Shown piece after piece: positions 6,434 through 57,224 of a DNA stretch of 64,000 bases (within the stretch, counting starts at the first letter, position 1; each line of letters begins with the position of its first letter). The stretch covers positions 289,839-353,838 of the forward strand of contig CAYPAP010000001.1 in NCBI GenBank assembly GCA_964408775.1. The letters are read 5' to 3'. Below the pieces are notes generated by a model. That model saw only the letters and a program-made list of their open reading frames with translations, had not been told where the DNA came from and did not search any database. The translations under genes were made by a program, and so were the position numbers. This DNA is from an uncultured Gammaproteobacteria bacterium (GTDB lineage Bacteria > Patescibacteriota > Patescibacteriia > Patescibacteriales > UBA12465).

Positions 6434-7492
6434 TTATCTTTTCTTATATCTAGTCGTTCGACCAACACCAATCCGCTCAATCCACTTTAGCTGTAATAAT
6501 TTATTCAAGATTTGATTAATAGTCGGCCTAGGAATTTTGGTTGCTTGGGAAATTTCTAGTGGTGTCACTACCTTGTCTTGCTTATCAATGTATGTCCAAA
6601 CAATATCTTGCTGAGGTGATAATAATTTTGACGCTTCTTTATGAGAAATAATATCAATTGCACGTTCTGATTGTTCTAAAACAATCTTTAAGAAAAAAGT
6701 TAGCCAAGCGCTAATGTCTTCCTTATTAGTTCTTAAAGTCTTTTGACTAGCTCTTAGGGCAATATAATACTCAGGTTTATTATCTTCAATTAATTTTTCC
6801 TGTGAAACGTAAGGCATATATTCATAGCCGTGTTGCAACATCAGAAGATTACTTAAGATACGAGAAAGACGACCGTTACCGTCAGCAAAGGGGTGAATAT
6901 GCAAAAATTCTACCAGAAAATTTCCGATGATAATTAAAGGATGAGCTGATTTTTCTAAAAAAACTGTCTGAGTGCGCTCCACTAATTCCTGCACTTCTTT
7001 TGGTGTTAACCAAGGAGCAGTCGTGTCAAATAATATTTCTATCGGTTTACCAGTTGGTGACACCATCGCCACTTTGTTTTCATCTTTTTTATGTTCACCA
7101 CGATGTAGTTCATCTTTTTCGGAATACTTTAACAGTTCACGGTGAAAAAACTTAATAGTTCTCTCAGCGAAGGGAATTGATTGATATGATTCAAACACAT
7201 TTTTTAATAAATCAAAATATCCGCACACTTCTTGTTTGTCGCGGTCTTTAAATTTTTGAAGAGATAGCCCCCGCATCAATCTCTCCACATCTTTATCAGA
7301 TAACTGTGAACCCTCAATGCGGGTTGAAGCACCGGTTGAAGTAATTAAAATAGATTTTTTCAAATTACTCAAAGTTTGTTGATCTAGTTTAGCACCATTT
7401 ATCCATTTACTTTTAAGCAAATCTATTTTATCGATTAATTCAACAATATTCTGAGGCAAATTATTTATTCTGTTGTCGAATTTATTATACAT
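6434..7492 (-). CDS. Fic/DOC family protein with C-terminal winged-helix domain
   Basis: Canonical Fic motif HIHPFADGNGRLSR. Fic_N-like STRIEGSQLS. Start moved to MYNKF at 7492. Confidence 0.85.
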   Translation of the reverse strand: MYNKFDNRINNLPQNIVELIDKIDLLKSKWINGAKLDQQTLSNLKKSILITSTGASTRIEGSQLSDKDVERLMRGLSLQKFKDRDKQEVCGYFDLLKNVFESYQSIPFAERTIKFFHRELLKYSEKDELHRGEHKKDENKVAMVSPTGKPIEILFDTTAPWLTPKEVQELVERTQTVFLEKSAHPLIIIGNFLVEFLHIHPFADGNGRLSRILSNLLMLQHGYEYMPYVSQEKLIEDNKPEYYIALRASQKTLRTNKEDISAWLTFFLKIVLEQSERAIDIISHKEASKLLSPQQDIVWTYIDKQDKVVTPLEISQATKIPRPTINQILNKLLQLKWIERIGVGRTTRYKKR

Positions 7493-7521
7493 AATCTTAT
7501 ATAGTTTATATATAAGATTAT
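7491..7521. promoter_or_regulatory. 13-bp-arm perfect inverted repeat overlapping the Fic start codon
   Basis: ATAATCTTATATA (7491-7503), 5-nt spacer, TATATAAGATTAT (7509-7521). The Fic ATG is at 7492-7490. Confidence 0.5.
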
Positions 7522-7624
7522 ATAGGAAATTGCAAGGGTGAATCAAAATATAACTCAGTTTTTAGCAATTAAAATTAATTTTATTGGCTAATATGAAACA
7601 AAATAAAGTATCGGAGCGATCCAC

Positions 7625-7648
7625 TTAGTTCGAATCGCCTGCTCTCCA
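7625..7648 (+). other. tRNA 3'-end-like remnant (T-loop plus acceptor-like sequence)
   Basis: TTAGTTCGAATCGCCTGCTCTCCA resembles GTTCGAAT T-loop + acceptor + A. The T-stem does not pair, so this is not a functional tRNA. Confidence 0.35.
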
Positions 7649-7667
7649 CTAACAAAAAAACTATCTA

Positions 7668-7696
7668 TTGACATAAATATGAAAGTATGTTATAAT
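7668..7696 (+). promoter_or_regulatory. consensus sigma70-type promoter
   Basis: TTGACA (7668-7673), 17-nt spacer, TATAAT (7691-7696). All 12 of 12 positions match consensus. Confidence 0.75.
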
Positions 7697-7733
7697 ATTA
7701 CCGTGGTTCGTTGAAAATGGTTAAATTTGATTC

Positions 7734-7782
7734 ATTACCTAAGTTAATGGGGCATTCCCCATAATTCATTGCTTTAGGTAAT
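7734..7782 (+). promoter_or_regulatory. 5' leader hairpin upstream of ORF 7818
   Basis: ATTACCTAA (7734-7742) pairs with TTAGGTAAT (7774-7782). It encloses an inner hairpin ATGGGG-CATT-CCCCAT (7747-7762) and is followed by an A/C-rich leader without an obvious SD. Confidence 0.45.
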
Positions 7783-7817
7783 AAATTGAATTACAAACCC
7801 CCAAAAACAAAAAAGAG

Positions 7818-8162
7818 ATGAAAAAAATTAACAGAAGAGCCCAAAGAGTGATCTCCACCAGGGAAAACCTCGTGATTTTACTCTTTGTCGCCAGCGGAAT
7901 TACCATTGGTTTTATACTGAACGCTTTGTCCGGCCCTGATAACCAGGCAGCTGGTGCCCGAATTTTTGTGGCGCTATGTATCCTTGCCGCAGCAGTCACA
8001 ACAGGATGGTTGCGCTACCGGTGGCTAGGGAAAAAACTGAATGAACTGGTGAAACAAAAAAACGCTGATTGCTCAGCGACACACCGACTAAGAATTTCGA
8101 CCCCGGAAAATAGCACTAAGCTGTTATCCGGGTTTTTTTATTTACTATCCTTGATAATATAA
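7818..8162 (+). CDS. hypothetical small membrane protein (2 TM), GC-richer than surroundings
   Basis: ORF downstream of the consensus promoter and leader. Two hydrophobic helices. The 3' end overlaps the convergent MFS gene by 25 bp. Confidence 0.4.
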   Translation: MKKINRRAQRVISTRENLVILLFVASGITIGFILNALSGPDNQAAGARIFVALCILAAAVTTGWLRYRWLGKKLNELVKQKNADCSATHRLRISTPENSTKLLSGFFYLLSLII

Positions 8163-9337
8163 ACAAAATAAAAACTATATAAGAAGATAATAGCTAAAAA
8201 TAAAAACAGATATTGCACTGGAAAAAAACTAAGAACCAAAACTCCCAAACCTGACCCAACTAAATACCCCAAAGGATAAGAGGTTCTTAAAAAATTGATT
8301 TGACTGACATGCTTAACATCAACAATCTTAAAGAAACTAGCTTCTCGCATCTCCTCAACCAAGGCCGCTCCAATACGACTAAAAAATAAAATTGCTCCCC
8401 AAACAAAGGGATTGGTTGATTTCACGAAGAAGAACATCAACAAGGCACTCATTAATATAAAAAGGCCAGCAAACATCATTTCTTTCTCTCCTAAATACTT
8501 GTCGGCGATAATACCAGCCGGAATTTCTATCAAAATAAAAGGTATCAACATGATAGAAAACATTATTCCTAGAGTGCTCCACTCAAATCCCAAATTAGTA
8601 TGCAAATAGATAGGTATAAAAACTACAGCTGAATTAAAAAATAAATTTAAGAAAAAAGAAACAAAATAAATCCCCCTTAAATTTAAATCTTTCCAAAAAA
8701 TTTTTATAGTCTCTCTTATTTTTAAAGCCTCAAAACGAACTTTTCTATGAACTTTTTTTCTATTAAAAACTATGATGGCATAAAAAACCAATAAAATAGA
8801 GGCCGATGCTAAATAAACTGGACCGTACCTATCGTCGGCCACCACCAATCTAGAAGCTAAAAAGGGAGAAACTATCCAACCCAGGTTCATAAAGGTAAAA
8901 TAAATAGCTCTGGTTTTACCTGTATTTGTATTTTTAGTAAAGCTTTCTACAAATATGTCCATATTCACCCAGATCAAATTAGAACTAACCCACATGGAAA
9001 CAAAAAAAATAAACAACCAAAAAGCCGAGGGATTCATCGCTAAAAAAAACAAAGATACTAAGTTTATAAATATCATAGCCTTGGCCGAGGCTAGGTTGCC
9101 AAATCTTTTTATAGTCTGAGGAAAGAACAACATTGAAACAAAGGTCAACAAGTTGGCCACAACAAAAAACAGTCCGACATATTCTACCGCGACTGAGTTT
9201 TCTATTAAACTAGAATTAATATAAGCTGGCAAAGCACTAGAGATGGCTAAAAATATTCCAGCTATATATAAAATAAACAAACTTTTGTTCTTTCTGCTTT
9301 TATAAATTTTACTAAAAAAAAGATCAAATCTATACAT
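8138..9337 (-). CDS. MFS transporter
   Basis: 399 aa, about 12 TM helices, MFS-like organisation. Confidence 0.7.
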   Translation of the reverse strand: MYRFDLFFSKIYKSRKNKSLFILYIAGIFLAISSALPAYINSSLIENSVAVEYVGLFFVVANLLTFVSMLFFPQTIKRFGNLASAKAMIFINLVSLFFLAMNPSAFWLFIFFVSMWVSSNLIWVNMDIFVESFTKNTNTGKTRAIYFTFMNLGWIVSPFLASRLVVADDRYGPVYLASASILLVFYAIIVFNRKKVHRKVRFEALKIRETIKIFWKDLNLRGIYFVSFFLNLFFNSAVVFIPIYLHTNLGFEWSTLGIMFSIMLIPFILIEIPAGIIADKYLGEKEMMFAGLFILMSALLMFFFVKSTNPFVWGAILFFSRIGAALVEEMREASFFKIVDVKHVSQINFLRTSYPLGYLVGSGLGVLVLSFFPVQYLFLFLAIIFLYSFYFVYIIKDSK

Positions 9338-10187
9338 TTTTTTTGGAATTACTTTTAAAATAAAATTTAGGAGTTAAAAATATTAACACCACAACTATAA
9401 TTATACTAATAAATTGAGGAAAGCGCAAACCAAAAATTTCAGGAGCAAAATCAATTCGAATAAATTCCAAACTAAATCTTAAAATAGAATACAAAGACAG
9501 ATATAAGGCGGTAATTAAAAAATCATTTTTAAAACTAACCTTATTTTTTTTAATGAAATAAAAATGAAGAGAAATTAAAATTATAAAAACAATCAAACTG
9601 CCTAGAGATTCGTATAAAAAAGTGGGATGGAAAAAAGATGTGCCCAAGTGTTCTAAAGGCCGATTAATTGGACTAATATAAACGCCCCAGGGTAAATCAG
9701 TGGGTCGACCAAAGAGTTCTTGGTTAAAATAATTTCCCCAGCGCCCTATGGCCTGAGCCAGTACCAAGCCCGGAGCAATCATAGCTGTCAATTTAAAGAA
9801 TCTAGACCACTGACTAAGGTTTTCAAAAGATTTTATTTTAACCTTTTTAACAAAAACCCATAAAGTAATTAATCCGGCCAATATTCCTCCATGGATAGCC
9901 AGTCCTCCCTGCCAAATTTTAAAAACGTCTACAGGATTTTCGATATAATAGCGCCACTCCAAAAAAATATCATAAATTCGGGCTCCAATAATTCCAAAAA
10001 TAATTAGATAAAAAGCTAGGTCAATAACAGTATCTTTTTCTATTTTATATTTTTTAGCTAAAAATAAGGTTAAGGAAAAGGCTAAAAATATCCCTAAAAC
10101 AATAAAAAATCCATACCAATAGATTTTTAGAAAGCCCCAAGAAATCAATACTGAACTGGGTTCAAAATTGTGTAATATATTTATCAT
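9330..10187 (-). CDS. lgt: prolipoprotein diacylglyceryl transferase
   Basis: Lgt motifs GIIGARIYD, WQGGLAIHGGILAG and GRWGNYFNQELFGRPTDLPWGV. Confidence 0.9.
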   Translation of the reverse strand: MINILHNFEPSSVLISWGFLKIYWYGFFIVLGIFLAFSLTLFLAKKYKIEKDTVIDLAFYLIIFGIIGARIYDIFLEWRYYIENPVDVFKIWQGGLAIHGGILAGLITLWVFVKKVKIKSFENLSQWSRFFKLTAMIAPGLVLAQAIGRWGNYFNQELFGRPTDLPWGVYISPINRPLEHLGTSFFHPTFLYESLGSLIVFIILISLHFYFIKKNKVSFKNDFLITALYLSLYSILRFSLEFIRIDFAPEIFGLRFPQFISIIIVVVLIFLTPKFYFKSNSKKNV

Positions 10188-10226
10188 TTGTTATTAATTA
10201 ACTCGATGATAACAAATCCCAAAGAT

Positions 10227-10262
10227 CTTAATAATCTTAATAATCCTAATAATCCTATTTCT
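10227..10262. repeat. tandem 9-mer repeats (CTTAATAAT x2, CCTAATAAT, CCTATTTCT) in the 3' trailer of tRNA-Leu
   Basis: Read directly from the sequence. 23 nt (ATCTTAATAATCCTAATAATCCT) are identical to 43184-43206. Confidence 0.7.
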
Positions 10263-10265
10263 CTG

Positions 10266-10347
10266 TGCGGGCGGAGAGACTCGAACTCTCATGGATTGCT
10301 CCGCTTGCTCCTAAGGCAAGTGCGTATACCAATTTCGCCACGCCCGC
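10266..10347 (-). tRNA. tRNA-Leu (anticodon TAG)
   Basis: Manual fold: acceptor GCGGGCG/CGCCCGC, anticodon stem CTTGC/GCAAG with loop CTTAGGA, long variable arm, T-arm GAGAG-TTCGAGT-CTCTC. Confidence 0.85.
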
Positions 10348-10470
10348 GAAAGTATTATTATAATAATATAAAATATTTAATAGGGCAAGGGGGCGCTGTT
10401 TTTTCATTTAATTTAAAAATATGTTATAATACTTCTATAAATAAAAAAAATAATCTTAAATTTTAAATCT

Positions 10471-12879
10471 ATGTCTTCTAAAAAATTTATCAAATTCTTT
10501 GACGAACTTCGGATTAAGGATGTCCCTGTGGTTGGAGGTAAAAATGCCTCCCTAGGAGAAATGTATCAAAAACTTTCTCCAGAAGGAATTAATGTCCCCT
10601 TCGGTTTTGCCACCACCTCCTCTGCTTACAATTATTTCATGGAAAAAAGTGGCTTAAAAAAAGAAATTAGAGAAATTTTAAAAGACCTTAGCACCCACAA
10701 CGTGCAGAACCTCATGACTCGAGGAGAGAAGGTGCGACAAACAATTTTAAAAACCCCCCTACCAAAAGACTTAGAAGCAGAAATTGTTTCAGCCTATAAA
10801 AAACTATCCAAATTTTACAAAAAAACAAATGTTGATGTCGCCGTCCGATCCTCAGCTACGGCCGAAGATCTACCAGATGCCTCTTTCGCCGGCCAACAAG
10901 AAACCTATCTAAACATCACCGGAGAAAAAGATTTGCTTTTAGCTGTTAGAAAATGTATTGCCTCTCTTTTTACTAATCGCGCCATCTCTTATCGCACCGA
11001 CAAAGGCTTCGACCACTTCAATATTGCCCTATCAGTAGGTGTACAAAAAATGTGTCGCTCTGATCTTGGCTCTTCTGGTGTAATGTTTACCATTGATACC
11101 GAATCTGGTTTTAAAGATGTAGTTTTGGTTCACTCTATTTATGGCCTAGGAGAAAATATCGTGCAAGGAAAAGTTAACCCCGACCAATTTTTCATTTTCA
11201 AACCAACTAAAAAAATAATTTATCGAGCTATTGGTAAAAAAGAGATTAAAATGATCTACAATAAAGACCATAAAAAACCAGTCAAAGATATTCCTGTTAA
11301 AAAAGATGACCAAGCTAAACAATCCATAACCGACGAGCAGGTATTAACCCTGGCTAAGTGGGGTATGGCTATTGAGAAGCACTACAAAAAGCCCATGGAT
11401 ATTGAATGGGCTTATGACGGAAAAGATAAAAAATTATACATCGTGCAGGCTCGTCCTGAAACTGTAGAAAGCGCTAAGAATCAAAACATTCTAGAAAGAT
11501 ATAAATTAGGAAAACGTGGAAAAGTTATTAGCACCGGTCAAAGTGTGGGCAATAAAATCGGAAGTGGCCAGGTAAACAGAATTATGAGCGTTAAGGATAT
11601 TAAAAAATTTAAAGCTGGCCAAGTTCTGTTAACTGATATGACCGACCCAGACTGGGAGCCAATCATGAAAATCGCATCAGCTATTGTCACCGACAAAGGA
11701 GGACGAACTTGCCACGCCGCGATTATTTCTCGAGAAATGGGGATTCCTTGCGTAGTTGGAACCAACGACGCTAGCAAAAAAATTAAAAGTGGCGAGAATG
11801 TTACAGTTAGTTGCGCTGAAGGTGAAGTTGGATTTGTTTATCAAGGTAAAATACCCTTTAAAATAGAAACTACTGACATCGGAAAACTAGCTCGACCTAA
11901 AACAAAAATAATGATGAATATCGCCGAGCCTGACACCGCTCTTTTGCACTCCTTTATTCCTAATGACGGTGTCGGATTGGCCCGCCTAGAATTTATTATC
12001 AACAACTACGCCAAAGTCCACCCTCTAGCTTTAATAAACTATAACAATTTAACGGATAAGGTCTTAAAAAATAAAATTGATAAAATCACCGAAGGCTATA
12101 AAAACAAAAGTCAGTTTTTTGTAGATAAATTAGCCGAAGGAGTGGCGATGTTAGCGGCTGGATTTTATCCGAAGGATGTTATTGTTCGTTTATCAGATTT
12201 CAAAACTAACGAATACGCCAATTTATTAGGAGGTAAGGATTATGAACCGCTAGAGTCTAACCCAATGATAGGATGGCGAGGGGCTAGCCGTTATTATTCT
12301 AAGGAATTTTTACCAGCTTTTAAGCTGGAGTGCCAAGCCTTAAAAAAAGTACGTGATGAATTTGGTTTAACTAATGTTAAAATTATGATTCCCTTCTGTC
12401 GAACAATAGAGGAGGGTAAAAAAGTTTTAAAAATAATGGAAGAAAATGGCTTGAAGCGCGGAAAAAATGGATTAGAGGTTTATGTTATGGCTGAAATTCC
12501 AGCCAATATAATTCTAGCTGAACAATTCGCTAAAATTTTTGATGGCTTCTCTATCGGCTCTAATGACCTAACACAATTAACCCTAGGAATTGACAGAGAC
12601 TCGGGTGGAACGTTAGAGGTGGCTGGTCAATCTGATGAAAAAAATGAGGCGGTTAAAATTTTAATAAAAAATTTGATAAGTGTCGCCAAAAAAACTAAAA
12701 CCAAAGTTGGAATTTGTGGGCAAGCCCCAAGTGATTTCCCAGATTTCGCTGAATTCTTAGTAGAATGTGGGATAGATAGCATATCCCTAATACCGGACTC
12801 TATTATTAAAACCACAATAGTGGTTAATGCTAAAGAAAAGAAAAATAAAAAGCATTTTATGTTAACAAAGGTCTTTTAG
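10471..12879 (+). CDS. ppsA: phosphoenolpyruvate synthase (pyruvate, water dikinase)
   Basis: 802 aa. Has the N-terminal GGKNASLGEM, a phosphohistidine region (GGRTCHAAIISREMGIPCVVG) and a PEP-utilising C-terminal domain. Confidence 0.9.
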   Translation: MSSKKFIKFFDELRIKDVPVVGGKNASLGEMYQKLSPEGINVPFGFATTSSAYNYFMEKSGLKKEIREILKDLSTHNVQNLMTRGEKVRQTILKTPLPKDLEAEIVSAYKKLSKFYKKTNVDVAVRSSATAEDLPDASFAGQQETYLNITGEKDLLLAVRKCIASLFTNRAISYRTDKGFDHFNIALSVGVQKMCRSDLGSSGVMFTIDTESGFKDVVLVHSIYGLGENIVQGKVNPDQFFIFKPTKKIIYRAIGKKEIKMIYNKDHKKPVKDIPVKKDDQAKQSITDEQVLTLAKWGMAIEKHYKKPMDIEWAYDGKDKKLYIVQARPETVESAKNQNILERYKLGKRGKVISTGQSVGNKIGSGQVNRIMSVKDIKKFKAGQVLLTDMTDPDWEPIMKIASAIVTDKGGRTCHAAIISREMGIPCVVGTNDASKKIKSGENVTVSCAEGEVGFVYQGKIPFKIETTDIGKLARPKTKIMMNIAEPDTALLHSFIPNDGVGLARLEFIINNYAKVHPLALINYNNLTDKVLKNKIDKITEGYKNKSQFFVDKLAEGVAMLAAGFYPKDVIVRLSDFKTNEYANLLGGKDYEPLESNPMIGWRGASRYYSKEFLPAFKLECQALKKVRDEFGLTNVKIMIPFCRTIEEGKKVLKIMEENGLKRGKNGLEVYVMAEIPANIILAEQFAKIFDGFSIGSNDLTQLTLGIDRDSGGTLEVAGQSDEKNEAVKILIKNLISVAKKTKTKVGICGQAPSDFPDFAEFLVECGIDSISLIPDSIIKTTIVVNAKEKKNKKHFMLTKVF

Positions 12880-12979
12880 GAACCTTCCTTTTTCCATCTC
12901 TCCCCATACAAATTTAAGACTAATAAAATTTAAGGACAAAAAAGTCAAATTCCAAATAATTATTAGAAATATACAAAAT

Positions 12980-13002
12980 AGCCCTAAAAATGGGCTTTTT
13001 TG
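12980..13002 (+). terminator. rho-independent terminator after ppsA
   Basis: AGCCC-taaaaat-GGGCT followed by a T-run. Confidence 0.6.
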
Positions 13003-13018
13003 TTTGTTTTTTAAAAGA

Positions 13019-13026
13019 CTAGCCCC
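13019..13026 (+). other. degenerate tRNA-His-3'-end-like core (CTAGCCCC) abutting a promoter
   Basis: CTAGCCCCAGGGA-TTGACT here, compared with CTAGCCACCCAC-TTGACA at the real tRNA-His 3' end (minus-strand reading of 42513-42530). Confidence 0.3.
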
Positions 13027-13031
13027 AGGGA

Positions 13032-13060
13032 TTGACTTTTTAAAAGAAATATGCTATAAT
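13032..13060 (+). promoter_or_regulatory. near-consensus sigma70-type promoter
   Basis: TTGACT, 17-nt spacer, TATAAT. Confidence 0.7.
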
Positions 13061-13106
13061 ACACTTGTGTACTTGAGATGTGAATAGTGGTTCTTTGACA
13101 ATAATT

Positions 13107-13163
13107 TTGGTTAATGTTTATAAGGGTTTTATTATAAATAGAACTTTTGTAAACATTAACCAA
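13107..13163 (+). promoter_or_regulatory. 5' leader hairpin (14-bp perfect stem, 29-nt loop)
   Basis: TTGGTTAATGTTTA (13107-13120) pairs with TAAACATTAACCAA (13150-13163). The downstream leader is A/C-rich (AAACCAAAAAAACCAATATC-ATG). Confidence 0.6.
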
Positions 13164-13198
13164 TAATTAAATCAAAACAAACCAAAAAAACCAATATC

Positions 13199-14068
13199 AT
13201 GAAAAAACTTGTTGTATTATTTGTAATTTTGGTTGCAATAGCAACCACCGTTTTTGGGCAGATTACCTCCAGTGACCTCCTCGAAAAGAGGACTCAGGAA
13301 ATTCAGGCCATCGATAAGAGCCTGAGAAAATCTGCTACCAGGGGCACCCAAGTCGACCCAGATGAACGGGAAAAGCTGGTGGCAAAAGTTGACTCCTTTT
13401 ACCAGCCGCTAATCTTAGCGGCCATGGGAAGAGAGTCTTCCGCAAGTACCACTACCTCTGCCACACCGACCACTTCTTCTGTCCAGAAGAAGGCAGGTAG
13501 TCATATTACGTATGGTAGCGATGGGAAGGTGACAGGAACCACCGAGGTTTCTTCGGAAACACCGGTGGCACCACCAAACCCCATACCAGCTCCGGCTGAC
13601 AGAAATTGTTTTGGCTCAACGGTCACCTATCAAGGAGACCAGGGGGCTTTCAGCGGCAACTCTACCTCTGTAAGAAGAGGTTCGGAGGCTTACGCTACCG
13701 TAGCCATAGCTGATGCCAACGCCTATCTGGTCCGCCAGATGGCTAAAGGTGCTAGCGCCACGGTAAATGCCCCAGCCACAGGAAACCAGGTTGGTCTGGA
13801 AGGAATGATTATAAACAAATATCGCTTCCGCGAATTGGAAGTGGAAATTGTTGGGACAAATCCCGGCAATGTTTATAAAAGAACATTCCTCCTGGGAAAA
13901 GAACAGTCCATCACGGACTACTTACTCCCAGGAAACTACAGGGCTACCATTAAAATTGTTGGACATGGATCTCCTGCGATCCATAACTTCACAGTAGCCC
14001 CCCAGCGAACCCACTCTTTCCACGGAAAGAATGTTTTCTGGGGCCTATATGGAGGAAGCTCCTGGTAA
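13199..14068 (+). CDS. secreted hypothetical protein, strongly GC-enriched relative to flanks
   Basis: 289 aa. Signal peptide MKKLVVLFVILVAIATTVFGQ and a Ser/Thr/Pro-rich linker. No family recognised. Has its own promoter and terminator. Confidence 0.6.
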   Translation: MKKLVVLFVILVAIATTVFGQITSSDLLEKRTQEIQAIDKSLRKSATRGTQVDPDEREKLVAKVDSFYQPLILAAMGRESSASTTTSATPTTSSVQKKAGSHITYGSDGKVTGTTEVSSETPVAPPNPIPAPADRNCFGSTVTYQGDQGAFSGNSTSVRRGSEAYATVAIADANAYLVRQMAKGASATVNAPATGNQVGLEGMIINKYRFRELEVEIVGTNPGNVYKRTFLLGKEQSITDYLLPGNYRATIKIVGHGSPAIHNFTVAPQRTHSFHGKNVFWGLYGGSSW

Positions 14069-14089: not shown

Positions 14090-14124
14090 AAGGCACCCCT
14101 CAAAAGGTGCCTTTTTTCTTTTTA
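14090..14124 (+). terminator. rho-independent terminator
   Basis: AAGGCACC-cctcaaaa-GGTGCCTT followed by a T-run. Confidence 0.7.
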
Positions 14125-16412: not shown

Positions 16413-16546
16413 ATTTTATATTTTAATAGCAAAATATACGTCCATTGTTGTAGGCACTTTAATAATAAAACGCTCACAACGATGGTGCTTATTTCTAAAA
16501 ATAAGCACCGTACTTCCAAAATCGACTTTAGAAATAACACAAAGAA

Positions 16547-16942
16547 CTAGTTTCCGGTTGCAGACATTAATTCGTTTAGAACAAATGAAGCGATTCCCCA
16601 GGCGGCTAGAATTATAACCAAACCGATAACACCGGCTCCTAATAATTTTTTGGCCTCGGCCACTTTCTCTTCATTGCCTCCAGCGGTCATCCATTTAAAT
16701 CCACCCAAAAGAACGATAATAACGGCGATGATTCCCAATAAAGTTAGAACTACGTTAATAATTTGGGCTATCATGGTGCGAGGATCTTTTTGTCCCAAGA
16801 CAATCTCTTCTCCTCCTGCGGCCCCATTAATATAATTATAACCGAAATTATCTCCGGCTGCCTCTACTCCAGCAGGCAATACCATCAAAAACGGAGTTAA
16901 AAACAAAGAAACTATAAACAAAGAAATTATTTTTTTTCTCAT
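16547..16942 (-). CDS. T4SS pilin-like protein (paralog 6)
   Basis: Loop motif KWMTAGGNEEKVAEAK. Strong SD (GAAAGGTGGTGA) upstream. Confidence 0.8.
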   Translation of the reverse strand: MRKKIISLFIVSLFLTPFLMVLPAGVEAAGDNFGYNYINGAAGGEEIVLGQKDPRTMIAQIINVVLTLLGIIAVIIVLLGGFKWMTAGGNEEKVAEAKKLLGAGVIGLVIILAAWGIASFVLNELMSATGN

Positions 16943-39588: not shown

Positions 39589-39978
39589 TTATACTACAAT
39601 AGATGAGATAATTATTATCAATAATAAAAAATAATATATTATTGAGAGTTTTTTGTAGTTCTTTTTGTTCCAGGTAAAACCCGAAACCATTATAAGCACT
39701 GAAACAATCAGGGCTATAAGTGTGAGCAGGCTGTAAAACAGACTTAACAGAATAAACTGAGAAGCCATAATAGCAGTTGCAAAAACCAAGACAACTGCCA
39801 TAAAGAAGGAAATATTTTTTGTTTTTTTCTTGAGCGTCAAATTTGACGCCATGAGCAGAGCGGCCAAAATGAAGGAGCTCAACACTGGGTTGAGTGGGGC
39901 ACCCTGGCCGCCCATAAGAGGATGGGCACTACAAATCGTGGCCCAAAAAATAAACAAGAAAAACATCAGTTTTTTCAT
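39589..39978 (-). CDS. hypothetical membrane protein (cassette 5), GC-enriched 5' half
   Basis: 129 aa. Signal-like N-terminus MKKLMFFLFIFWATICSA plus TM helices. Terminator AATCCCGC/GCGGGATT at 39556-39583. Confidence 0.5.
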   Translation of the reverse strand: MKKLMFFLFIFWATICSAHPLMGGQGAPLNPVLSSFILAALLMASNLTLKKKTKNISFFMAVVLVFATAIMASQFILLSLFYSLLTLIALIVSVLIMVSGFTWNKKNYKKLSIIYYFLLLIIIISSIVV

Positions 39979-40140
39979 TTTTTTGGTTTTTGGTTAGACA
40001 ATGGGGTTAACTATACTTGTTTTTTGTTAAAGGCCTCTTGATAATAAAACATCGTATCATATAAAATATTGCTTGTAAAGAGTATTGAATAAAAAATCCC
40101 GCTACATTTGTAGAGCGGGATTGTAGACTTTTTATTATTA

Positions 40141-40683
40141 TTATTTACGTACAGCGAGGAAGTAAGAATCAGGGGCTCGAATAGCATCGAACCACTGAAA
40201 ATAAAGTTGACGCTCCTCACAATTAATAGAGAGAACTGGGCAATACGCCTCAGCATATCCTTCTTCATTATGGGACCACCAACACCACATGGAGCCCAGC
40301 GCAATAATAAAAGAAGGTTTTTGTAGCTCCGGATAGTTGTTTCCCAAGGCCAGAAGCTCTGACACAAGAGCAGGGCGATAACCGGCACTATCCAATTCAT
40401 CTAAAACAACTTCACTGCTGACCTCTCGGTTAAAGTGAAACAACCTGGCCGATACAGTCACTTGCTTGCCTAAGAGCTCAGCGGGAAAAGGAAACTTTTC
40501 TTCTGTGATATCAAAACTGATCCACTCGTAATTACTAGTTTTAATCATTTCTTCCAGGTTTTGGCTGTAGTCCACTGTCAAAATGATTTCCCTGCTTAGG
40601 CTGATGACTCGTTCTTGAGCCATAATTTGATTTAAGGGGTTGCATAAAACAAATAAAATCAAAGTGAATACCAATTTTTTCAT
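40141..40683 (-). CDS. hypothetical secreted protein (cassette 4), GC-enriched
   Basis: 180 aa. Signal peptide MKKLVFTLILFVLCNPLNQIMAQ. Terminator ATCCCGCT/AGCGGGAT at 40096-40121. No family recognised. Confidence 0.55.
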   Translation of the reverse strand: MKKLVFTLILFVLCNPLNQIMAQERVISLSREIILTVDYSQNLEEMIKTSNYEWISFDITEEKFPFPAELLGKQVTVSARLFHFNREVSSEVVLDELDSAGYRPALVSELLALGNNYPELQKPSFIIALGSMWCWWSHNEEGYAEAYCPVLSINCEERQLYFQWFDAIRAPDSYFLAVRK

Positions 40684-40798
40684 TTTACCTTGGTTTTTGG
40701 TTAAGTAATTGGGTTAATTATCAAGCCTACTAATTATAATAGAATTAATAATTAACCTAATTTTAACCTTCTTGTGAAAGTGCTATCTGTAACAAAAA

Positions 40799-40827: not shown

Positions 40828-40831
40828 GCTA

Positions 40832-40840
40832 GGTGGCTAG
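40832..40840. repeat. tRNA-His 3'-end core copy (GGTGGCTAG)
   Basis: Identical to 42522-42530 of the tRNA-His gene. Followed on the plus strand by TGTGGAAAGTTGGAAAACTTTTCTGA. Confidence 0.6.
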
Positions 40841-40940
40841 TGTGGAAAGTTGGAAAACTTTTCTGATGGAATATTTGGTAAATTGATATAAAAAAGACCC
40901 GCGATGTTATTGCGGGTCTAAACGTTTGAATTATTGCCTC

Positions 40941-41264
40941 TCATTCTTCCAGATACACAAATCTAGGATCAAGCACTTTTTTATCATGCTTTTTCGTTTC
41001 TACATAACTAATACGAATACTATTCTCTGGATAAGCTAATCTCAAATAAGAAATTCGTAAAACGAGGTTTCTATTTTGAACAAACAGAGTATCGCGCTCA
41101 TTAGTAATAACAACAATTGATTTCATGTGAGCGGCTCCACTAGGTCCCAGAAATACTAATTCTTGATCAGCAGGGATTATAATATCCCTCCAATTAGAAT
41201 CATTACCGCAAGAGTTAAACAATACAAACAAAAATGATAGCAAAATAACTGAAAATGTTTTCAT
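40941..41264 (-). CDS. hypothetical lipoprotein-like protein (cassette 3)
   Basis: 107 aa. Signal peptide with Cys (LFVLFNSCGN). Promoter TTGACA-17-TATACT at 41340-41312. Terminator at 40895-40919. Confidence 0.5.
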   Translation of the reverse strand: MKTFSVILLSFLFVLFNSCGNDSNWRDIIIPADQELVFLGPSGAAHMKSIVVITNERDTLFVQNRNLVLRISYLRLAYPENSIRISYVETKKHDKKVLDPRFVYLEE

Positions 41265-41423
41265 GATATTTATTTTTTTGGTGAATATCTTAATGAACTA
41301 TATAACACGATAGTATATAATATTTAAATAATTTTGTCAAGCAGTTTGTCTTCCCGCTAGGGGTAACCGATTTTTAACAAAAAAATACCCCATTTTATTG
41401 GGATATTTTTAATTTGCTTCTAG

Positions 41424-41433
41424 GGGTGGCTAG
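41424..41433. repeat. tRNA-His 3'-end core copy (GGGTGGCTAG, 10/10)
   Basis: Identical to 42521-42530. Confidence 0.6.
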
Positions 41434-41434
41434 C

Positions 41435-41482
41435 AGGGAGGCTTGGAAAACTTTTCTGAGGGAGGCTTGGAAAACTTTTCTG
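41435..41482. repeat. 24-bp perfect tandem duplication AGGGAGGCTTGGAAAACTTTTCTG x2
   Basis: Read directly from the sequence. The same GGAAAACTTTTCTGA motif sits next to the core at 40832. Confidence 0.85.
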
Positions 41483-41552
41483 GTTGATTATTGGGTGAAA
41501 TAAAAAACCGCACTTGTTCAAGCGCGGTATTAAATGTTAAAATAGAAGATTT

Positions 41553-42082: not shown

Positions 42083-42370
42083 TTAATATTTTTGCCAAAG
42101 CGCTTCAATAAGAGATTTTTTAATTGTTTCGTAATCTCTTTCATCGTAACAATCTTTGTTGATAACTGCCCGGACAGATTCGCAAGAAGAGCCAGCCTCA
42201 TAGTCTCTTTCTGTGTAAGCGTCTATATCTTGTTCCACCTCTACAACAACGAAGTTAATATTTTTAACCTTTAGGTATTCGCCTTTTAAAGGTACGCGTT
42301 GAACATAAATTTGTTTTAAAAATCTTACATTATTAACCTCAAGACTGTACATTGCTGCAATTAAGTTCAT
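42083..42370 (-). CDS. hypothetical small cytoplasmic protein (cassette 1)
   Basis: 95 aa with a strong SD (AAAGGAGGAAT). Terminator with T-run at about 42049-42069. Confidence 0.5.
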   Translation of the reverse strand: MNLIAAMYSLEVNNVRFLKQIYVQRVPLKGEYLKVKNINFVVVEVEQDIDAYTERDYEAGSSCESVRAVINKDCYDERDYETIKKSLIEALWQKY

Positions 42371-42489
42371 TTTTATTCCTCCTTTTTTAAAATTAAAAAA
42401 TTAGATTAATTATTAAACCTACTAATATAATAAACTTAATAATTAACCCAATCTTAACCTATTTGTAAAAGGGCTACTTGTAACAAAAA

Positions 42490-42519: not shown

Positions 42520-42594
42520 TGGGTGGCTAGAGGGAATCGAACCCTCACTTCCGGGACCACAACCCGGTGTTCTAGCCGCTAAACTATAGCCACC
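42520..42594 (-). tRNA. tRNA-His (anticodon GTG) with encoded G-1
   Basis: Manual fold: G-1 + GTGGCTA/TAGCCAC acceptor, anticodon stem CCGGG/CCCGG with loop TTGTGGT, T-arm GAGGG-TTCGATT-CCCTC, discriminator C. Confidence 0.85.
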
Positions 42595-45034: not shown

Positions 45035-46156
45035 TTATTGTTTTATTGGCATAACTAAATACAAAAAGTCATCTCCTTTTTCAGGTCTGATAACACATGG
45101 TGTATTATTATCAACAACTCCCAATACAATATTTTCTGAATTAATATTATTTAACCCCTCTAATAAATATTTATAATTAACAAACACCTCATTGTCCCCC
45201 CCCTTAATATTCGCATCTAGTTCAATAAAATTTTCTCCCGCCTGACTAGAGCTAGATGAAATAATTATTTTATTTTTTATAAAATTCAAATTAACATCAT
45301 TTATTCCTGTTTTAGAAAAAAGACCAGCCGCTTTAATGGCTCGCGAAAAAATATTTTTATTAATAATGATTTTTGTTTTTTCCTCTTTCGGTATTATCTG
45401 TTTATAGTCCGGATAGTTTCCAACTATTATTCTAGACCCAATTTTAGTTGATCCAATTGAAAAAAATATTTGGTTATTATTTAAATATAAATTAACCTCC
45501 CCCTCTCCCTCAATCTGTTCTTCGGTCTTAAAGTTATTCAAAATTCTAACCAACTCCTGAATTGTTCTAGCAGGGACAATAATAGTAAACTCTTCTTCAT
45601 TTTTATTTTTAATTTTTATTTTTTTCTCAGCCAAGCGATAACTATCTGTTCCAACCAGGGTTAACTCTCCTGACAAAAAAGAGAAATAAACCCCAGACAA
45701 CTCAACCCTACCATCATTACTAGAAACAGAAAAAACAGTACTAGACAAGGCCTCCCTAAAATCCTCAACTGCAAAAGAATAAAAACTTTTTTGATCAATT
45801 TTTGGAAGAACCGGAAAGTCTTCGGCTGATTGTCCCTTTATTCTTGTTTTATGATTTTTAGAATCAACCTTTAAATCATCTTCAACCCTTTCTATTTCAA
45901 CCTTGTCCTCAGATAAAAGATTTATATAATCACTCATAATTCTGGCATCAACCGTAAACTCTCCCTCTTTTTCAACCTTTCCCCTTAAAGAGCTTTCTAT
46001 GCTTATTTCTAGATTAGTAGAAATTAGTTCTATCCCTTCTTTTTTTGCTTTTATTAAAATATTATTTAGTATCGGTAAATTTATATTTTTAGTTGTTAAA
46101 TGTGAAACTATGGCTAGGCCCTGTTTTAAGTTTTCTTTCAAAATTATAAATTTCAT
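45035..46156 (-). CDS. dnaN: DNA polymerase III beta sliding clamp
   Basis: 373 aa. N-terminus MKFIILKENLKQGL....H....K..LPIL.NILI. Located directly downstream of dnaA. Confidence 0.9.
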   Translation of the reverse strand: MKFIILKENLKQGLAIVSHLTTKNINLPILNNILIKAKKEGIELISTNLEISIESSLRGKVEKEGEFTVDARIMSDYINLLSEDKVEIERVEDDLKVDSKNHKTRIKGQSAEDFPVLPKIDQKSFYSFAVEDFREALSSTVFSVSSNDGRVELSGVYFSFLSGELTLVGTDSYRLAEKKIKIKNKNEEEFTIIVPARTIQELVRILNNFKTEEQIEGEGEVNLYLNNNQIFFSIGSTKIGSRIIVGNYPDYKQIIPKEEKTKIIINKNIFSRAIKAAGLFSKTGINDVNLNFIKNKIIISSSSSQAGENFIELDANIKGGDNEVFVNYKYLLEGLNNINSENIVLGVVDNNTPCVIRPEKGDDFLYLVMPIKQ

Positions 46157-46450
46157 ATTTTTCTTTTATATTTATTTTATATTATATTAAATAATAATAG
46201 TAATAAGGGGTGGGGATATGTTTGTTATTTTTTACTTCGGCTTTTGTTTTATTGTATTAAGTCGACCTTTTGACTGTTTATAACTATGTTTAAATTTTCG
46301 GTAAAAACTTTTTGATTTGTTAATAACTTTTTGTTTTTAAAACTTATACACATTTTATAAAAAACGATTAATAGTTTTTGCACAGATTTTAAATTTTTTA
46401 TTAACTTAATATCAACCGTTTATTAACAACTATTTTTTCTTTTTTTATAA
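46157..46450. other. dnaA-dnaN intergenic region, candidate oriC part
   Basis: Very AT-rich 294-bp spacer with a one-mismatch DnaA box TTATACACA near 46344. Confidence 0.35.
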
Positions 46451-47818
46451 CTATAAAGAGCCATATAACAGCTGTTTTATAGACTGAATGTCTTGAACAA
46501 GTTTTTCGTTTTCGTCTTTTTCTTTGTTTATTTTATTAAAGGCGTGGATGGCGGTTGTATGGTCTCTTCCCCCTAGGGCTTCTCCTATTGTGGGATAAGA
46601 CGTTTTTAATTCTTCTCTCATTAAAAATATAGATATTTGTCTGGGAAATACTAACTCTTTTTTTCTTTTTTCTCCCATTAGGTCTTTTACACTTATATTA
46701 TAAAACTGGGCAACGCTCTCTATTATGTCTTTGGGGCTCATCGGTTTTATTTGATTGTTGTTTGTTAAATCATTTAAAATGGTTTTTACCATTTTTAATG
46801 TTGGTTTTAGATTATGAAATTCGTGATAGGCAATAATTTTATTCAAAGCCCCCTCTAATTCTCTAATATTATTTTGGATACTTTCAGCAATATATTTTAA
46901 AACTTCATCTTCTATTATGTAATTCTTTTCTTTAGCCTTCTTTTCTAATATAGCAATTTTTGTTTCAATATCTGGTCTTCCAACGTCTGCCACCATGCCA
47001 GACTCAAATCGAGAAATTAGCCTTTTTTCAATCGCTGGGATGGCCTTTGGTGGCCTGTCAGAAGATAATACTATTTGTTTATCTCCCTGCTGTAATTCAT
47101 TGAAGGTGTGAAAAAACTCTTCTTGAGTTCCGTCTTTTCCCCCCATAAACTGAACATCATCTACTAATAGTAGATCAACGTTTCGATATAGATTTTTAAA
47201 TTCTTTTGCTCGCCCTCCTCTTATAGAGTCTATATAATTATTTGTGAATTGTTCACTGGTTGTGTATAAAACTTTTTTGTTGTTTTTTACTAGCTCGTTT
47301 CCCATAGCTTGAAGCAAATGAGTTTTTCCTAGTCCTACACCCCCGTAAATAAATAAAGGGTTGTAAGCCTTGCCCGGGTTGCTAACAATTGCCTGACAAG
47401 CTGCGTAGGCTAGCTCGGTTGCCTTGCCCACCACAAAAGTAGAAAAGGAATATTTTGGGTTCAGACCAAATCGGCTAACGTTTATTTTATTTTCTTGTGA
47501 GCAGGCTTTTATTGGTTCTTCTTTTTTTTCATTTTTTTTACTTATATCCTTCTCGCTGCTTTCTTCTTTTTTTAGATTTACACTGAATTCTATTTCAGTA
47601 ATTTTTTTTTCAACAATTTTTTCTATAGAAGATTTAATGGCCTTGTAATATTTTTGCTCTAACCATCTTTTAGTGAATTCATTTGGCACCGATATAATAA
47701 CCTTATTATCCTCTAGGCAATAAATAAAAGTGTTTTTAAACCAAGTAATAAAGTTTACCCTGGAAATTCCAATTTCTAGTTCGCCTAATACGGCTTGCCA
47801 AATTTGATCATTGGTCAT
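46451..47818 (-). CDS. dnaA: chromosomal replication initiator DnaA
   Basis: Walker A GGVGLGKTHL, box VII, and a C-terminal DNA-binding domain (GGRDHTTAIHA). Confidence 0.95.
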   Translation of the reverse strand: MTNDQIWQAVLGELEIGISRVNFITWFKNTFIYCLEDNKVIISVPNEFTKRWLEQKYYKAIKSSIEKIVEKKITEIEFSVNLKKEESSEKDISKKNEKKEEPIKACSQENKINVSRFGLNPKYSFSTFVVGKATELAYAACQAIVSNPGKAYNPLFIYGGVGLGKTHLLQAMGNELVKNNKKVLYTTSEQFTNNYIDSIRGGRAKEFKNLYRNVDLLLVDDVQFMGGKDGTQEEFFHTFNELQQGDKQIVLSSDRPPKAIPAIEKRLISRFESGMVADVGRPDIETKIAILEKKAKEKNYIIEDEVLKYIAESIQNNIRELEGALNKIIAYHEFHNLKPTLKMVKTILNDLTNNNQIKPMSPKDIIESVAQFYNISVKDLMGEKRKKELVFPRQISIFLMREELKTSYPTIGEALGGRDHTTAIHAFNKINKEKDENEKLVQDIQSIKQLLYGSL

Positions 47819-52109: not shown

Positions 52110-53186
52110 TTAGTCTAAAAGGCACCGCACAGCCAAGCCATTAGCTCGGCCGTAACTGTTCATGTATGCATTACTACTATCGAAGTAAAGGTAGCGCGAA
52201 TTCGTGCCATCTACGGAACTCGCCCAATAGCGGCCGCTAGAACCAACATCGTAGCGAACGCCCACCTGTCGGTGGCTGTAGCCGGCTAATGTAAGTTTTA
52301 AAGGTGTGGCAAAGGCTCCGGCTGAGTTGTGTGTTCCCCAGCTTACTCTTTCAGCTTCCCATTCTGCTTCGGTTGGTATTCTCCAGTCACTTGGACAGGG
52401 GTTATTAACTCCACTTGCTCCTTGCCATAGATTATTGTTTTCCGGACTACGCCAGTCATTAGGAGAACTTCCGTTAGTTATAAAATTAGCATGTCCTGGG
52501 GTGTCGGTGGTGGCCAATGTTGCTGTTGTAGCTGGAGCTGGACTTCTAACTTGATGCCCATCATCTAATCTGCCCCATTGGAATAGGTCACCATAGGCGG
52601 CGGCATCAGTGGAGGATATGGCTACTTGCGTGGCTCCGAGGTTGCGGTCTAACCAACATTCAGTAGTAGTTGCATTTAATACAGTTCCGTAGGTTACAGG
52701 AGATCCGTTGTATGTGAAAGTCACCGTGTATTCTCCGCACCTAGGAACGTGGACCACCCCTGAAGGGCTGGCCTCTTTTAATCCAGCTGACAGGCTAGCT
52801 ATAGCACCTCCTGTACAAAAATCTATGGTATAGGTCGATCCGTCAGCAGATGTATAGGTGTAAGTGTTATCACTTTCCTCACAGTCTCCGTCTGCTGGAG
52901 TAGGCGCTGTTGGGACAGTGGCCATATAGGTTGATCCTCCCGTGGCTATAGTACTATCTATTTCTCCAGTTAGCGGATATGCTCCGGTATCATTATAATA
53001 CAGTTCTAATGCTGTTTGCATTTGTCTAACATCAGCTATTCTTTTAGCGTCTCGAGCATTTTTTCTAGCATTTTGTAGGGACACCACAGCTAGAGTAGCC
53101 AAAATACCAATTATGGCGATTACTACTAATAGTTCAATTAGAGTAAAGGCTGGCTTATAAGATCTCTTGACCTTAAATTTAAACAT
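52110..53186 (-). CDS. type IV pilin-like protein fused to a FISUMP (Fibrobacter succinogenes major paralogous) domain
   Basis: Prepilin N-terminus [21 protein letters not shown]-terminal motifs CWLDRNLGA, YGDLFQWGR, WRIPTEAEWEA, GRYWASS and GLAVRCLLD match the FISUMP pattern. The C-terminal two-thirds are strongly GC-enriched. Confidence 0.8.
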   Translation of the reverse strand: MFKFKVKRSYKPAFTLIELLVVIAIIGILATLAVVSLQNARKNARDAKRIADVRQMQTALELYYNDTGAYPLTGEIDSTIATGGSTYMATVPTAPTPADGDCEESDNTYTYTSADGSTYTIDFCTGGAIASLSAGLKEASPSGVVHVPRCGEYTVTFTYNGSPVTYGTVLNATTTECWLDRNLGATQVAISSTDAAAYGDLFQWGRLDDGHQVRSPAPATTATLATTDTPGHANFITNGSSPNDWRSPENNNLWQGASGVNNPCPSDWRIPTEAEWEAERVSWGTHNSAGAFATPLKLTLAGYSHRQVGVRYDVGSSGRYWASSVDGTNSRYLYFDSSNAYMNSYGRANGLAVRCLLD

Positions 53187-56780: not shown

Positions 56781-57224
56781 ATGAAAAACAAAAAAACAGG
56801 CTTCACTTTAATTGAGTTATTGGTAGTTATTGCTATCATCGGAATATTAGCTACTCTTGCGGTTGTCTCCCTGCAAAATGCCAGAAAAAATGCTAGAGAT
56901 GCTAAAAGAGTTGCCGATGTTAGACAAATGCAAACAGCCCTAGAATTGTATTTTAATGACTGGCAAGAATATCCAGCTACTTTTACTGCTGGACAAATTG
57001 CTACTAGTAGCTCTGTTTATATGGCCACTGTTCCAACAGCTCCTACTCCGCATGATGGGACTGGTTGTACTGCGAGCAACAATGCTTATCAAAATAATTA
57101 TGAAACTCAATCAAGCAATGCCTCTTACACTATAGATTTTTGTTTAGGAGGAACCAGTGGAACAACCGAAGGACCTGCCTGTGCTACTCCGGCCGGGATC
57201 ATAACAGGAGAAGCCTGTATTTAG
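56781..57224 (+). CDS. type IV pilin-like protein (prepilin N-terminal methylation domain)
   Basis: [37 protein letters not shown]. About 60 N-terminal residues are nearly identical to those of 52110-53186. Terminator at 57252-57280. Confidence 0.85.

Follow-up and report, generated by a model that had tools for sequence, protein, structure and literature searches.

A candidate promoter-plus-hairpin leader shared by a resident secreted-protein gene and tRNA-His-associated gene cassettes in Patescibacteria

Stem-loops in 5′ untranslated regions (UTRs) stabilize bacterial mRNAs or direct their processing, as in the ompA and aprE leaders and at the RNase III sites of the pnp and rnc leaders and of phage T7 early mRNAs. 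The Correia elements of Neisseria are miniature inverted-repeat transposable elements (MITEs) that supply promoters and are cut by RNase III. Tandem accretion at tRNA genes is also known, together with integrase-less derivatives such as the cis-mobilizable elements (CIMEs) of Streptococcus and the tRNA-linked islands with tRNA 3′ fragments of Prochlorococcus. Patescibacteria, or the candidate phyla radiation (CPR), are tiny, mostly uncultured episymbionts whose gene regulation and gene acquisition are almost uncharted. To our knowledge, neither tRNA-targeted arrays nor such leaders have been described in them, and literature searches on integrons or tRNA islands in this group gave no relevant result. 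Here we analyze a 64,000-nt stretch of an A/T-rich Patescibacteria/CPR chromosome (contig CAYPAP010000001.1, positions 289,839 to 353,838, hereafter the window; ~33% GC), which spans dnaA/dnaN and a likely oriC. At four loci, a strong sigma-70-type promoter followed by a long hairpin precedes an open reading frame (ORF). We name these loci unit 1 (at 7625, the 7.6 kb unit), unit 2 (at 13019), unit 3 (at 40840, minus strand), and unit 4 (at 42530, minus strand). We propose, with a probability of about 0.55, that the shared module is a promoter plus a structured 5′-leader RNA that acts on mRNA fate and is used both by a resident gene and by cassettes.

The layout of promoter, hairpin, and ORF that an earlier note had described at the four loci is real. 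Each locus has the -35 and -10 hexamers of a sigma-70-type promoter separated by a 17-nt spacer, with a TG preceding the -10: TTGACA-17-TATAAT at 7668-7696 (+) in unit 1, matching the consensus at 12/12 positions; TTGACT-17-TATAAT at 13032-13060 (+) in unit 2 (11/12); TTGACA-17-TATTCT at 40827-40799 (-) in unit 3 (10/12); and TTGACA-17-TATGAT at 42518-42490 (-) in unit 4 (11/12), where the promoter begins ~3 nt past the end of tRNA-His. The hexamers are invariant in orthologs. A second promoter made of the leader motif described below and the 5′ arm of the hairpin can be drawn in unit 2 (TTGACA-17-TATAAG); the other units lack it, and we discarded it.

The hairpins start 27-44 nt after the -10 and are all sense to the downstream ORF. 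In a scan of the entire window, hairpins of at least 24 pairs occur only at these four loci (29, 28, 26, and 24 pairs), and none was seen inside a gene. Unit 2 folds into 27-29 pairs, including four G-U, at 13103-13167 (+), with the core GGTTAAT...ATTAACC at 13109-13161; unit 4 into 28 pairs, seven of them G-U, at 42397-42455 (-); unit 1 into 26 pairs with a GC-rich apical stem at 7724-7792 (+); and unit 3 into 24 pairs at 40707-40762 (-). The stems located earlier are sub-parts of these longer ones. The remaining window hairpins have at most 21 pairs and are mostly terminators; shuffled sequence gives 3-14 hairpins with at least 18 pairs. RNA-fold z-scores against shuffled sequence are -8.2 (unit 2), -5.4, -3.5, and -2.3. 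The hairpins do not qualify as intrinsic terminators: their stems are A/U-rich, no T-run follows, and they lie between promoter and ORF. Canonical terminators occur elsewhere in the window, for example at 12980-12996 and 14090-14113. No hairpin or leader matched Rfam 15, in which only tRNAs reached the gathering score; at a permissive E-value, only generic hairpin matches appeared, such as mir-155 at 30 bits vs a gathering score of 56. The loop TTATTATA, held to be shared, is common to three window copies, but loop sequences are not conserved in orthologs.

Upstream of the hairpin lies the motif GNNCNTTNACAA, which is invariant in the copies found outside the window. On both strands of the window (128 kb), it has five matches, four of which fall in module leaders (13090, 40772, 42463, and, in a hairpin-less copy, 40024). 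The motif reads GGTTCTTTGACAA at 13089-13101 (+) in unit 2, AGCACTTTCACAA at 40772-40784 (-) in unit 3, and AGCCCTTTTACAA at 42463-42475 (-) in unit 4; in unit 1, GGTTCGTTGAAAAT at 7705-7718 (+) retains seven of the eight family invariants in the cmsearch alignment. Pairing of the motif with downstream leader sequence was considered and rejected, as it is not conserved in the related locus L127 (related loci are designated L plus a number).

Units 3 and 4 are 80% identical over 171 nt (BLAST, E 2e-35). Because BLAST and a two-sequence profile left units 2 and 1 inseparable from background, we built a test from public relatives only. Genome contigs were searched with the loose DNA pattern GGTTAATN{8,14}TATTATAN{15,30}ATTAAYC; its matches were mostly due to chance, and among the matches listed only L034, L075, L087, and L106 were real. 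These four GTDB species representatives and two Joint Genome Institute contigs (L125, L126) were the source of the non-window copies. A covariance model built from eight such copies (R1), run over the window with filters off, ranked the four loci first: 40700-40795 (unit 3, E 1.6e-10, 73.7 bits), 42392-42486 (unit 4, 2.3e-9, 67.2 bits), 13078-13170 (unit 2, 0.008), and 7694-7799 (unit 1, 0.071, 25.1 bits). The next, unrelated match had E 0.49, and sense scores were well above antisense. R1 also matches orthologous leaders at seven other loci, and a profile hidden Markov model of nine sequences matches 13023-13173 over nearly its full length (E 0.002). From these comparisons we conclude that units 4 and 3 are close homologs, that unit 2 is a diverged member of the family, and that unit 1 is a borderline member.

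Unit 2 heads the gene of a 289-aa secreted protein (13199-14068, +) with a signal peptide, a helical N-terminus, a Thr/Pro-rich linker, and a C-terminal beta-sandwich. The AlphaFold model has a mean predicted local distance difference test score (pLDDT) of 61 and shows only a generic beta-sandwich at the C-terminus, and a Foldseek search with it returned no match at E <= 0.001. The gene has 18 homologs with 43-74% identity. Every locus fetched has the order ppsA, 13199 ortholog, and, on the other strand, a cluster of type IV secretion system (T4SS) pilin genes, and in every ortholog locus TTGACA-17-TGCTATAAT and the hairpin stand at the same place, with the -10 TGCTATAAT invariant. The gene, at 0.49 the most GC-rich of the window, had been taken for foreign cargo. 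Its orthologs (L127-L139) have a GC content of 0.40-0.53 vs 0.30-0.34 in the flanks in every relative, and up to 0.57 at third codon positions; raised GC therefore belongs to the gene itself and does not indicate recent import. As synteny, leader, and raised GC are kept in every relative examined, the gene is resident and not foreign. Of the four genes with the highest GC in the window, three carry the hairpin leader.

The orthologous leaders permit an analysis of the stem. A hairpin occurs at the orthologous position in at least eight related Patescibacteria, with compensatory changes and mostly on the sense strand; promoter and hairpin downstream of ppsA are kept in L127, L128, L130, L133, L134, L137, and L139, with different stem interiors. 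The stem base is GGTTAAT/ATTAACC, replaced by GGTTATT/AATAACC in one group and by GGTTGAT in another. In L128 a U-A pair of the interior has become C-G, the L130 group carries three double changes among the first 13 pairs, and the interiors of L137 and L133 are unrelated and still paired. We tested covariation in the basal 13 bp of 12 distinct sequences against 500 shuffles. Paired cells amount to 95.5% vs 82.5% in shuffles (0/500), both sides have changed at 6/13 pairs (8/500 shuffles), and the covariation score is 0.383 vs 0.148 (0/500); relatedness among the sequences means that the shuffles overstate independence, and these figures lend support but are not probabilities. When the register of the basal stem is slid, pairing collapses to 18-50%.

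The two strands are not equivalent. In 16 of 18 hairpins the sense strand gives the more stable fold, and across five hairpin lineages 14 G-U pairs stand against three A-C oppositions (p = 0.006). Together, compensatory changes and strand asymmetry point to a structure selected in the transcribed strand. The compensatory stem changes that the earlier note had proposed looking for are thus present across orthologous leaders, and with the G-U preference on the sense strand its suggestion of a cis-regulatory RNA holds at the level of a candidate. The public call of gene P0010 in L133 (2501-2566) takes an ATG within the leader hairpin as its start, ~66 nt upstream of the real one (MKKIVTMF...); knowledge of the leader can improve gene calls.

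The start codon lies 13-37 nt beyond the hairpin, in an unstructured, A-rich region. Apart from that of unit 4, the leaders do lack a Shine-Dalgarno (SD) sequence, as had been noted, but this is not distinctive: an SD-like 4-mer stands upstream of only 5 of 62 window genes, rarer than chance (14.6% of random 17-mers), and the A/C-rich, SD-less leader once seen as a special trait is the norm across window genes. Because SD motifs are rare throughout the window, an SD-less leader is ordinary and the hairpin probably does not control access of the ribosome; because the start region is outside the hairpin, we infer an action on the transcript rather than masking of the ribosome site.

We take the module to be a strong sigma-70-type promoter joined to a conserved structured 5′ leader, in which the single-stranded motif GNNCNTTNACAA and a short spacer are followed by a 23-29 bp A/U-rich stem-loop with a base, GGUUAAU/AUUAAYC, that is conserved in sequence and an interior conserved in pairing only. 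Most likely, the hairpin would act as a protein-recognized element or an RNase III-type processing or stability element that sets the mRNA level. The predicted structure places a sense-strand duplex of 23-29 pairs in the 5′ UTR, where an RNase III-type site calls for at least 20 bp. Like the known 5′-UTR stem-loops, the leader has a long sense-strand stem-loop outside the ribosome-binding region, with an uninterrupted 23-29 bp that would be enough for RNase III. Unlike them, its hairpin lies 27-44 nt after the -10 and not at the extreme 5′ end, its stem base and a single-stranded motif are conserved, and it is confined to one Patescibacteria clade. In its resident use, the leader heads a gene beside the T4SS-pilin cluster that encodes a secreted protein and is inherited vertically; in its cassette use, it forms the 5′ end of small integrase-less cassettes.

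Those cassettes lie behind tRNA-His(gtg) (42521-42593, -; 3′ end CTAGCCACCCA), the anchor of the array. Unit 4 begins at the true 3′ end of this tRNA, and unit 3 begins with CTAGCCACC (40840-40832), a copy of that end. Of the tRNA-3′-end remnants proposed in front of each promoter, these two stand and 7612-7648 resembles a type-II tRNA, but CTAGCCCC at 13019 bears only a weak resemblance to a tRNA and is absent from orthologous loci. The first cassette ORF (42083-42370, -) encodes 95 aa and has a strong SD, no signal peptide, and no Pfam match. Cassette 1 ends in what we call an A segment (41424-41502, -), with a pseudo-tRNA-His core GCTAGCCACCCC and a 24-nt tandem duplication; the duplicated sequence, CAGAAAAGTTTTCCAAGCCTCCCT, stands in two copies at 41440-41490 (-), just before the core. 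Next come CCCCTAGCGGGAAGACAAA, a promoter with early leader and no hairpin (41291-41349, -; E 1.3e-4), and the ORF of a 107-aa lipoprotein (40941-41264, -). Cassette 2 closes with a second A segment (40829-40893, -; E 7e-16), whose core is the CTAGCCACC with which unit 3 begins. Unit 3 precedes the gene of a 180-aa secreted protein (40141-40683, -) of a family widespread in Patescibacteria. Downstream, 39979-40082 (-; E 0.003) is the partial copy it had been taken for, with promoter, motif (GGCCTTTAACAA at 40024-40035), and leader 3′ end, and without the hairpin; it is followed by a 129-aa ORF (39589-39978, -).

An A segment is ~65 nt long and consists of a terminator followed by TTTTTTATATCAATTTACCAAATATTCCATCAAAAAAGTTTTCCAAGTTTTGCGnTTAGCCACCCC, and its last bases copy the tRNA-His 3′ end. 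Such segments were seen only in tRNA arrays: two in the window, four each in L087 and L125, and one each in L034 and L075. The arrays of the window, L034, L075, L087, and L125 lie behind a tRNA-Arg(tct)/tRNA-His pair, and that of L106 is similar and lies behind tRNA-Gln; the near-identical strains L003-L006 share the same array. The 3′ end of the tRNA is directly repeated at the junctions, with copies of the tRNA-His end at 41434-41425 and 40840-40832, and most A segments of L087 and L125 end in such a core. To the right of the core, tRNA-proximal and internal junctions continue with the same sequence: 42520-42371 and 40831-40684 of the window are 80% identical, and in L087 the sequence from 1101 on matches that from 2419 on. 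At internal cores the sequence is TAGCCACCCC, also in L087, where the tRNA of the host ends in TAGGCACCCC. Both features are predicted by serial site-specific insertion at the tRNA 3′ end, which also predicts that the internal junctions are complete attP-like sites. A dif/Xer-like site in the A segment was rejected, its match to the XerD arm being poor by eye.

Cassette units measure 0.3-1.7 kb and carry 1-3 ORFs; most are headed by promoter and hairpin, some by the promoter only (41349-41291 and 40082-40015). Their order would be post-core sequence, promoter, leader, ORF, terminator, ~65-nt A segment, and pseudo-tRNA-His core. They would have accumulated serially at the tRNA-His 3′ end, probably by site-specific recombination at the tRNA-like core with a recombinase encoded elsewhere. 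The ORFs that follow the module are mutually unrelated, and species differ in cargo. Near tRNA-His, the promoter and leader (~80% identity or more) precede unrelated ORFs in at least seven genomes, which agrees with the earlier idea of a portable expression module; the part of that idea in which the module travels with foreign secreted-protein genes did not hold. Homologs of the 180-aa cargo at the four other loci fetched lie in unrelated contexts, without module or tRNA, and the module therefore belongs to the cassette or the landing site and not to the gene. Nor is the cargo always secreted: the 95-aa and a 93-aa ORF lack a signal peptide, and one relative's cassette holds a fragment of 23S rRNA. 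The MKKL protein starts listed earlier were confirmed. Pfam searches with the cargo ORFs gave no match, and neither module nor A segment had a true match in viral, phage, and plasmid collections, which thus provide no evidence of a phage or plasmid origin.

The arrays invite comparison with integrons, including clusters of attC sites lacking integron-integrases (CALIN). Like integron cassettes, they are tandem, small, mostly single-ORF units with a fixed anchor, a conserved palindromic block, and varying cargo. Unlike them, the units bring promoters with them, the palindrome stands upstream of the ORF, the apparent crossover is at the tRNA-like core, no IntI was found among the 29 window ORFs, and the hairpin also serves a gene outside the array. 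With CIME-type accretion they share a tRNA 3′ end directly repeated at each junction, attP-like internal junctions, and the lack of a recombinase of their own; they differ from it in the very small units (~0.3-1.7 kb), in the common promoter and leader at their head, and in that no integrase was seen in the loci fetched. The cassette-array format thus lies between integrons and classical tRNA islands. We rate as new the occurrence in Patescibacteria of a structured 5′ leader together with tRNA-targeted cassette accretion, each of a known kind. A promoter plus leader that shows covariation offers a concrete cis-regulatory RNA candidate and a ready-made expression signal for genetic tools in Patescibacteria. 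The tRNA-His arrays illustrate how a reduced genome may acquire small secreted or membrane genes and express them at once. A further reading, speculative and on balance unlikely, is that the tRNA-His locus works as an integron-like gene-capture platform, into which a recombinase acting in trans would insert mini-cassettes serially, the leader placing each new gene under a post-transcriptional control shared with the resident cell-surface gene beside the T4SS-pilin cluster.

Several points weigh against a leader RNA common to resident gene and cassettes. Hairpin-less copies (41291-41349, 39979-40082) precede ORFs, so the hairpin would be dispensable for at least some expression. By BLAST or a two-sequence profile, units 2 and 1 show no significant similarity to the other units; their BLAST similarity is about that of many A/T-rich background matches, an equally good one lying inside a gene (53603-53712). 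The covariance-model check advised earlier came out only in part: R1 ranks the four loci first, but a reciprocal model built from the leaders of the orthologs downstream of ppsA (R2) finds 13074-13173 at E 1e-10, reaches only E 2.5 for the cassette units, and misses unit 1. The link between the cassette-type and the unit 2-type leader is thus modest, and R1 may partly reward any long A/T-rich hairpin. The relatedness of the sequences in the covariation test counts here too, as does the L137 lineage, whose hairpin folds better in antisense. Promoter use and RNA structure at the four loci are deduced from the sequence. Finally, scans for recombinases and Pfam domains, which covered the 29 window ORFs and the related loci fetched, revealed no recombinase in either, L125 included; one could act in trans.

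Could the hairpin act on DNA instead? It might be a single-stranded or cruciform recombination site that moves the cassettes, similar to attC or to the folded attP of CTX phage, with the promoter incidental. Its position at the boundary between a conserved inter-ORF block and variable cargo in tandem arrays would fit, strand-specific G-T pairing would suit a single-stranded DNA substrate as well, and the sequence-conserved stem base suggests recognition by a protein. We nevertheless consider this improbable: the hairpin, with covariation, also stands at a stable non-array gene in at least eight genomes, it is missing from some cassettes, and the homology of the junctions places the crossover at the tRNA-like core, 100-170 nt upstream of the hairpin. 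Comparison with attC itself was negative. The attC ends are RYYYAAC (R″) and GTTRRRY (R′); here, the ends 5′-GGTTAAT...ATTAACC-3′ have GTT first and AAC last on either strand, and are in this sense reversed, while each agrees with the consensus at 6/7 positions. The stem is a continuous 23-29 bp without conserved bulges or extrahelical bases. A promoter of its own precedes the hairpin, which stands upstream of the ORF, and the scans of the 29 window ORFs and the related loci turned up no integron integrase. An equally improbable proposal makes the palindrome and the upstream motif double-stranded DNA operators, at which a repressor or activator would form a roadblock downstream of the transcription start. 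GGTTAAT and ATTAACC do form an inverted repeat, and sequence, not pairing, is what is conserved in the motif and in a TTGTTACA-like stretch near the start. The half-sites, however, are 31-48 nt apart with variable spacing, the interior co-varies to keep pairing, and the sense strand favors G-U over A-C; none of these is predicted by a dimeric DNA binder.

Leader and hairpin might also form a separate small RNA, trans-acting or part of a type-I toxin-antitoxin-like pair with hydrophobic peptides, with the ORF expressed by read-through. Conservation of the leader begins at the predicted transcription start, several cargo ORFs encode hydrophobic peptides of 49-52 aa, and one array promoter of L087 precedes a non-coding segment. 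This is less probable still, since no terminator or U-tract follows the hairpin, the ORF always starts 13-37 nt on in the same orientation, and the cargo includes proteins of 180-289 aa. Already disfavored, and very unlikely, is a selfish palindromic repeat near promoters (a MITE, a repetitive extragenic palindrome (REP), or a Correia-like element) or a chance product of A/T-rich sequence, for which the background-level BLAST similarity of units 2 and 1, with one comparable match inside a gene, would speak. Like Correia elements, the module has a repeated palindrome upstream of genes that is co-transcribed (here by prediction) and may be an RNase III substrate; unlike them, it has low copy number, a fixed orientation, and no terminal inverted repeats or TA duplication, and it recurs at orthologous sites, where it shows compensatory changes. 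The 64 kb contain only four such hairpins, all sense, in a fixed position relative to promoter and ORF and none seen inside a gene; the site is conserved between orthologs, no terminal repeats or target duplications were seen, and the independent motif GNNCNTTNACAA co-occurs with the hairpins. Assignment to MITE, REP, or Correia-like repeats was therefore rejected. Because of covariation, strand asymmetry, and persistence at a non-mobile gene, all these alternatives are less consistent with the data than a promoter with a structured leader RNA.

Unit 1 differs from the others in its setting. It follows a tRNA-like 3′ remnant at 7612-7648 (+), with the variable arm, T loop, and acceptor of a type-II tRNA, which resembles tRNA-Leu(tag) (CGGAGCGATCCA vs CGGAGCAATCCA; GTTCGAATC vs GTTCGAGTC) and is not detected by ARAGORN or Rfam. 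It precedes a 114-aa membrane ORFan (7818-8162, +; GC 0.44), and because this ORF has no homologs the locus cannot be compared across species. The unit resembles a decayed insertion, broadly of the cassette kind, into a different tRNA-derived site, a view for which the evidence is thin. A Fic/DOC plus helix-turn-helix gene (6434-7546, -) abuts it.

Some further features of the arrays and their cargo are recorded here. Several cassette ORFs carry a strong GGAGG (window 42083-42370, L034, L126, and L125b), which hints that GGAGG-bearing cassettes come from, or circulate among, SD-using lineages. The 23S rRNA fragment lies in the tRNA-His array of L125 (6706-6794, -) and corresponds to positions 2126-2215 of bacterial 23S rRNA (50.4 bits, E 2.6e-12). 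G+C-rich segments of 130-300 nt without an Rfam match interrupt the A/T-rich arrays at L125 7480-7695, between tRNA-His and the first tRNA remnant, at L106 ~1990-2210, after tRNA-Gln, and at L087 2190-2320. L174 560-668, in front of the gene for the 180-aa cargo's closest homolog (68%), contains TTTTTTAACAATTTAATTATTAACC, which resembles the motif with the 3′ arm of the hairpin only and may be a module that lost its palindrome. In L177 (4122-6591), another homolog of this cargo adjoins a diversity-generating retroelement (bAvd plus RVT_1) and a Fic gene.

The T4SS-pilin genes next to the 13199 gene contain a structured intergenic element of their own (window 16420-16560, -; L128 3795-3935, -), in which AGTTCTTTGTGTTATTTCTAAAGTCGATTTTGGAAGTAC precedes two hairpins; comparison of the window with a relative at 57% protein identity reveals compensatory changes in the second. 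Two GC-rich type-IV-pilin-like genes, 52110-53186 (-) and 56781-57224 (+), both without the hairpin leader, share a near-identical N-terminus of ~55 aa and have different C-terminal domains. Finally, dnaN and dnaA (45035-47818, -) and the region at ~48-50 kb adjoin the cumulative GC-skew minimum, marking the likely replication origin, which lies only ~3-5 kb from the tRNA-His cassette array.

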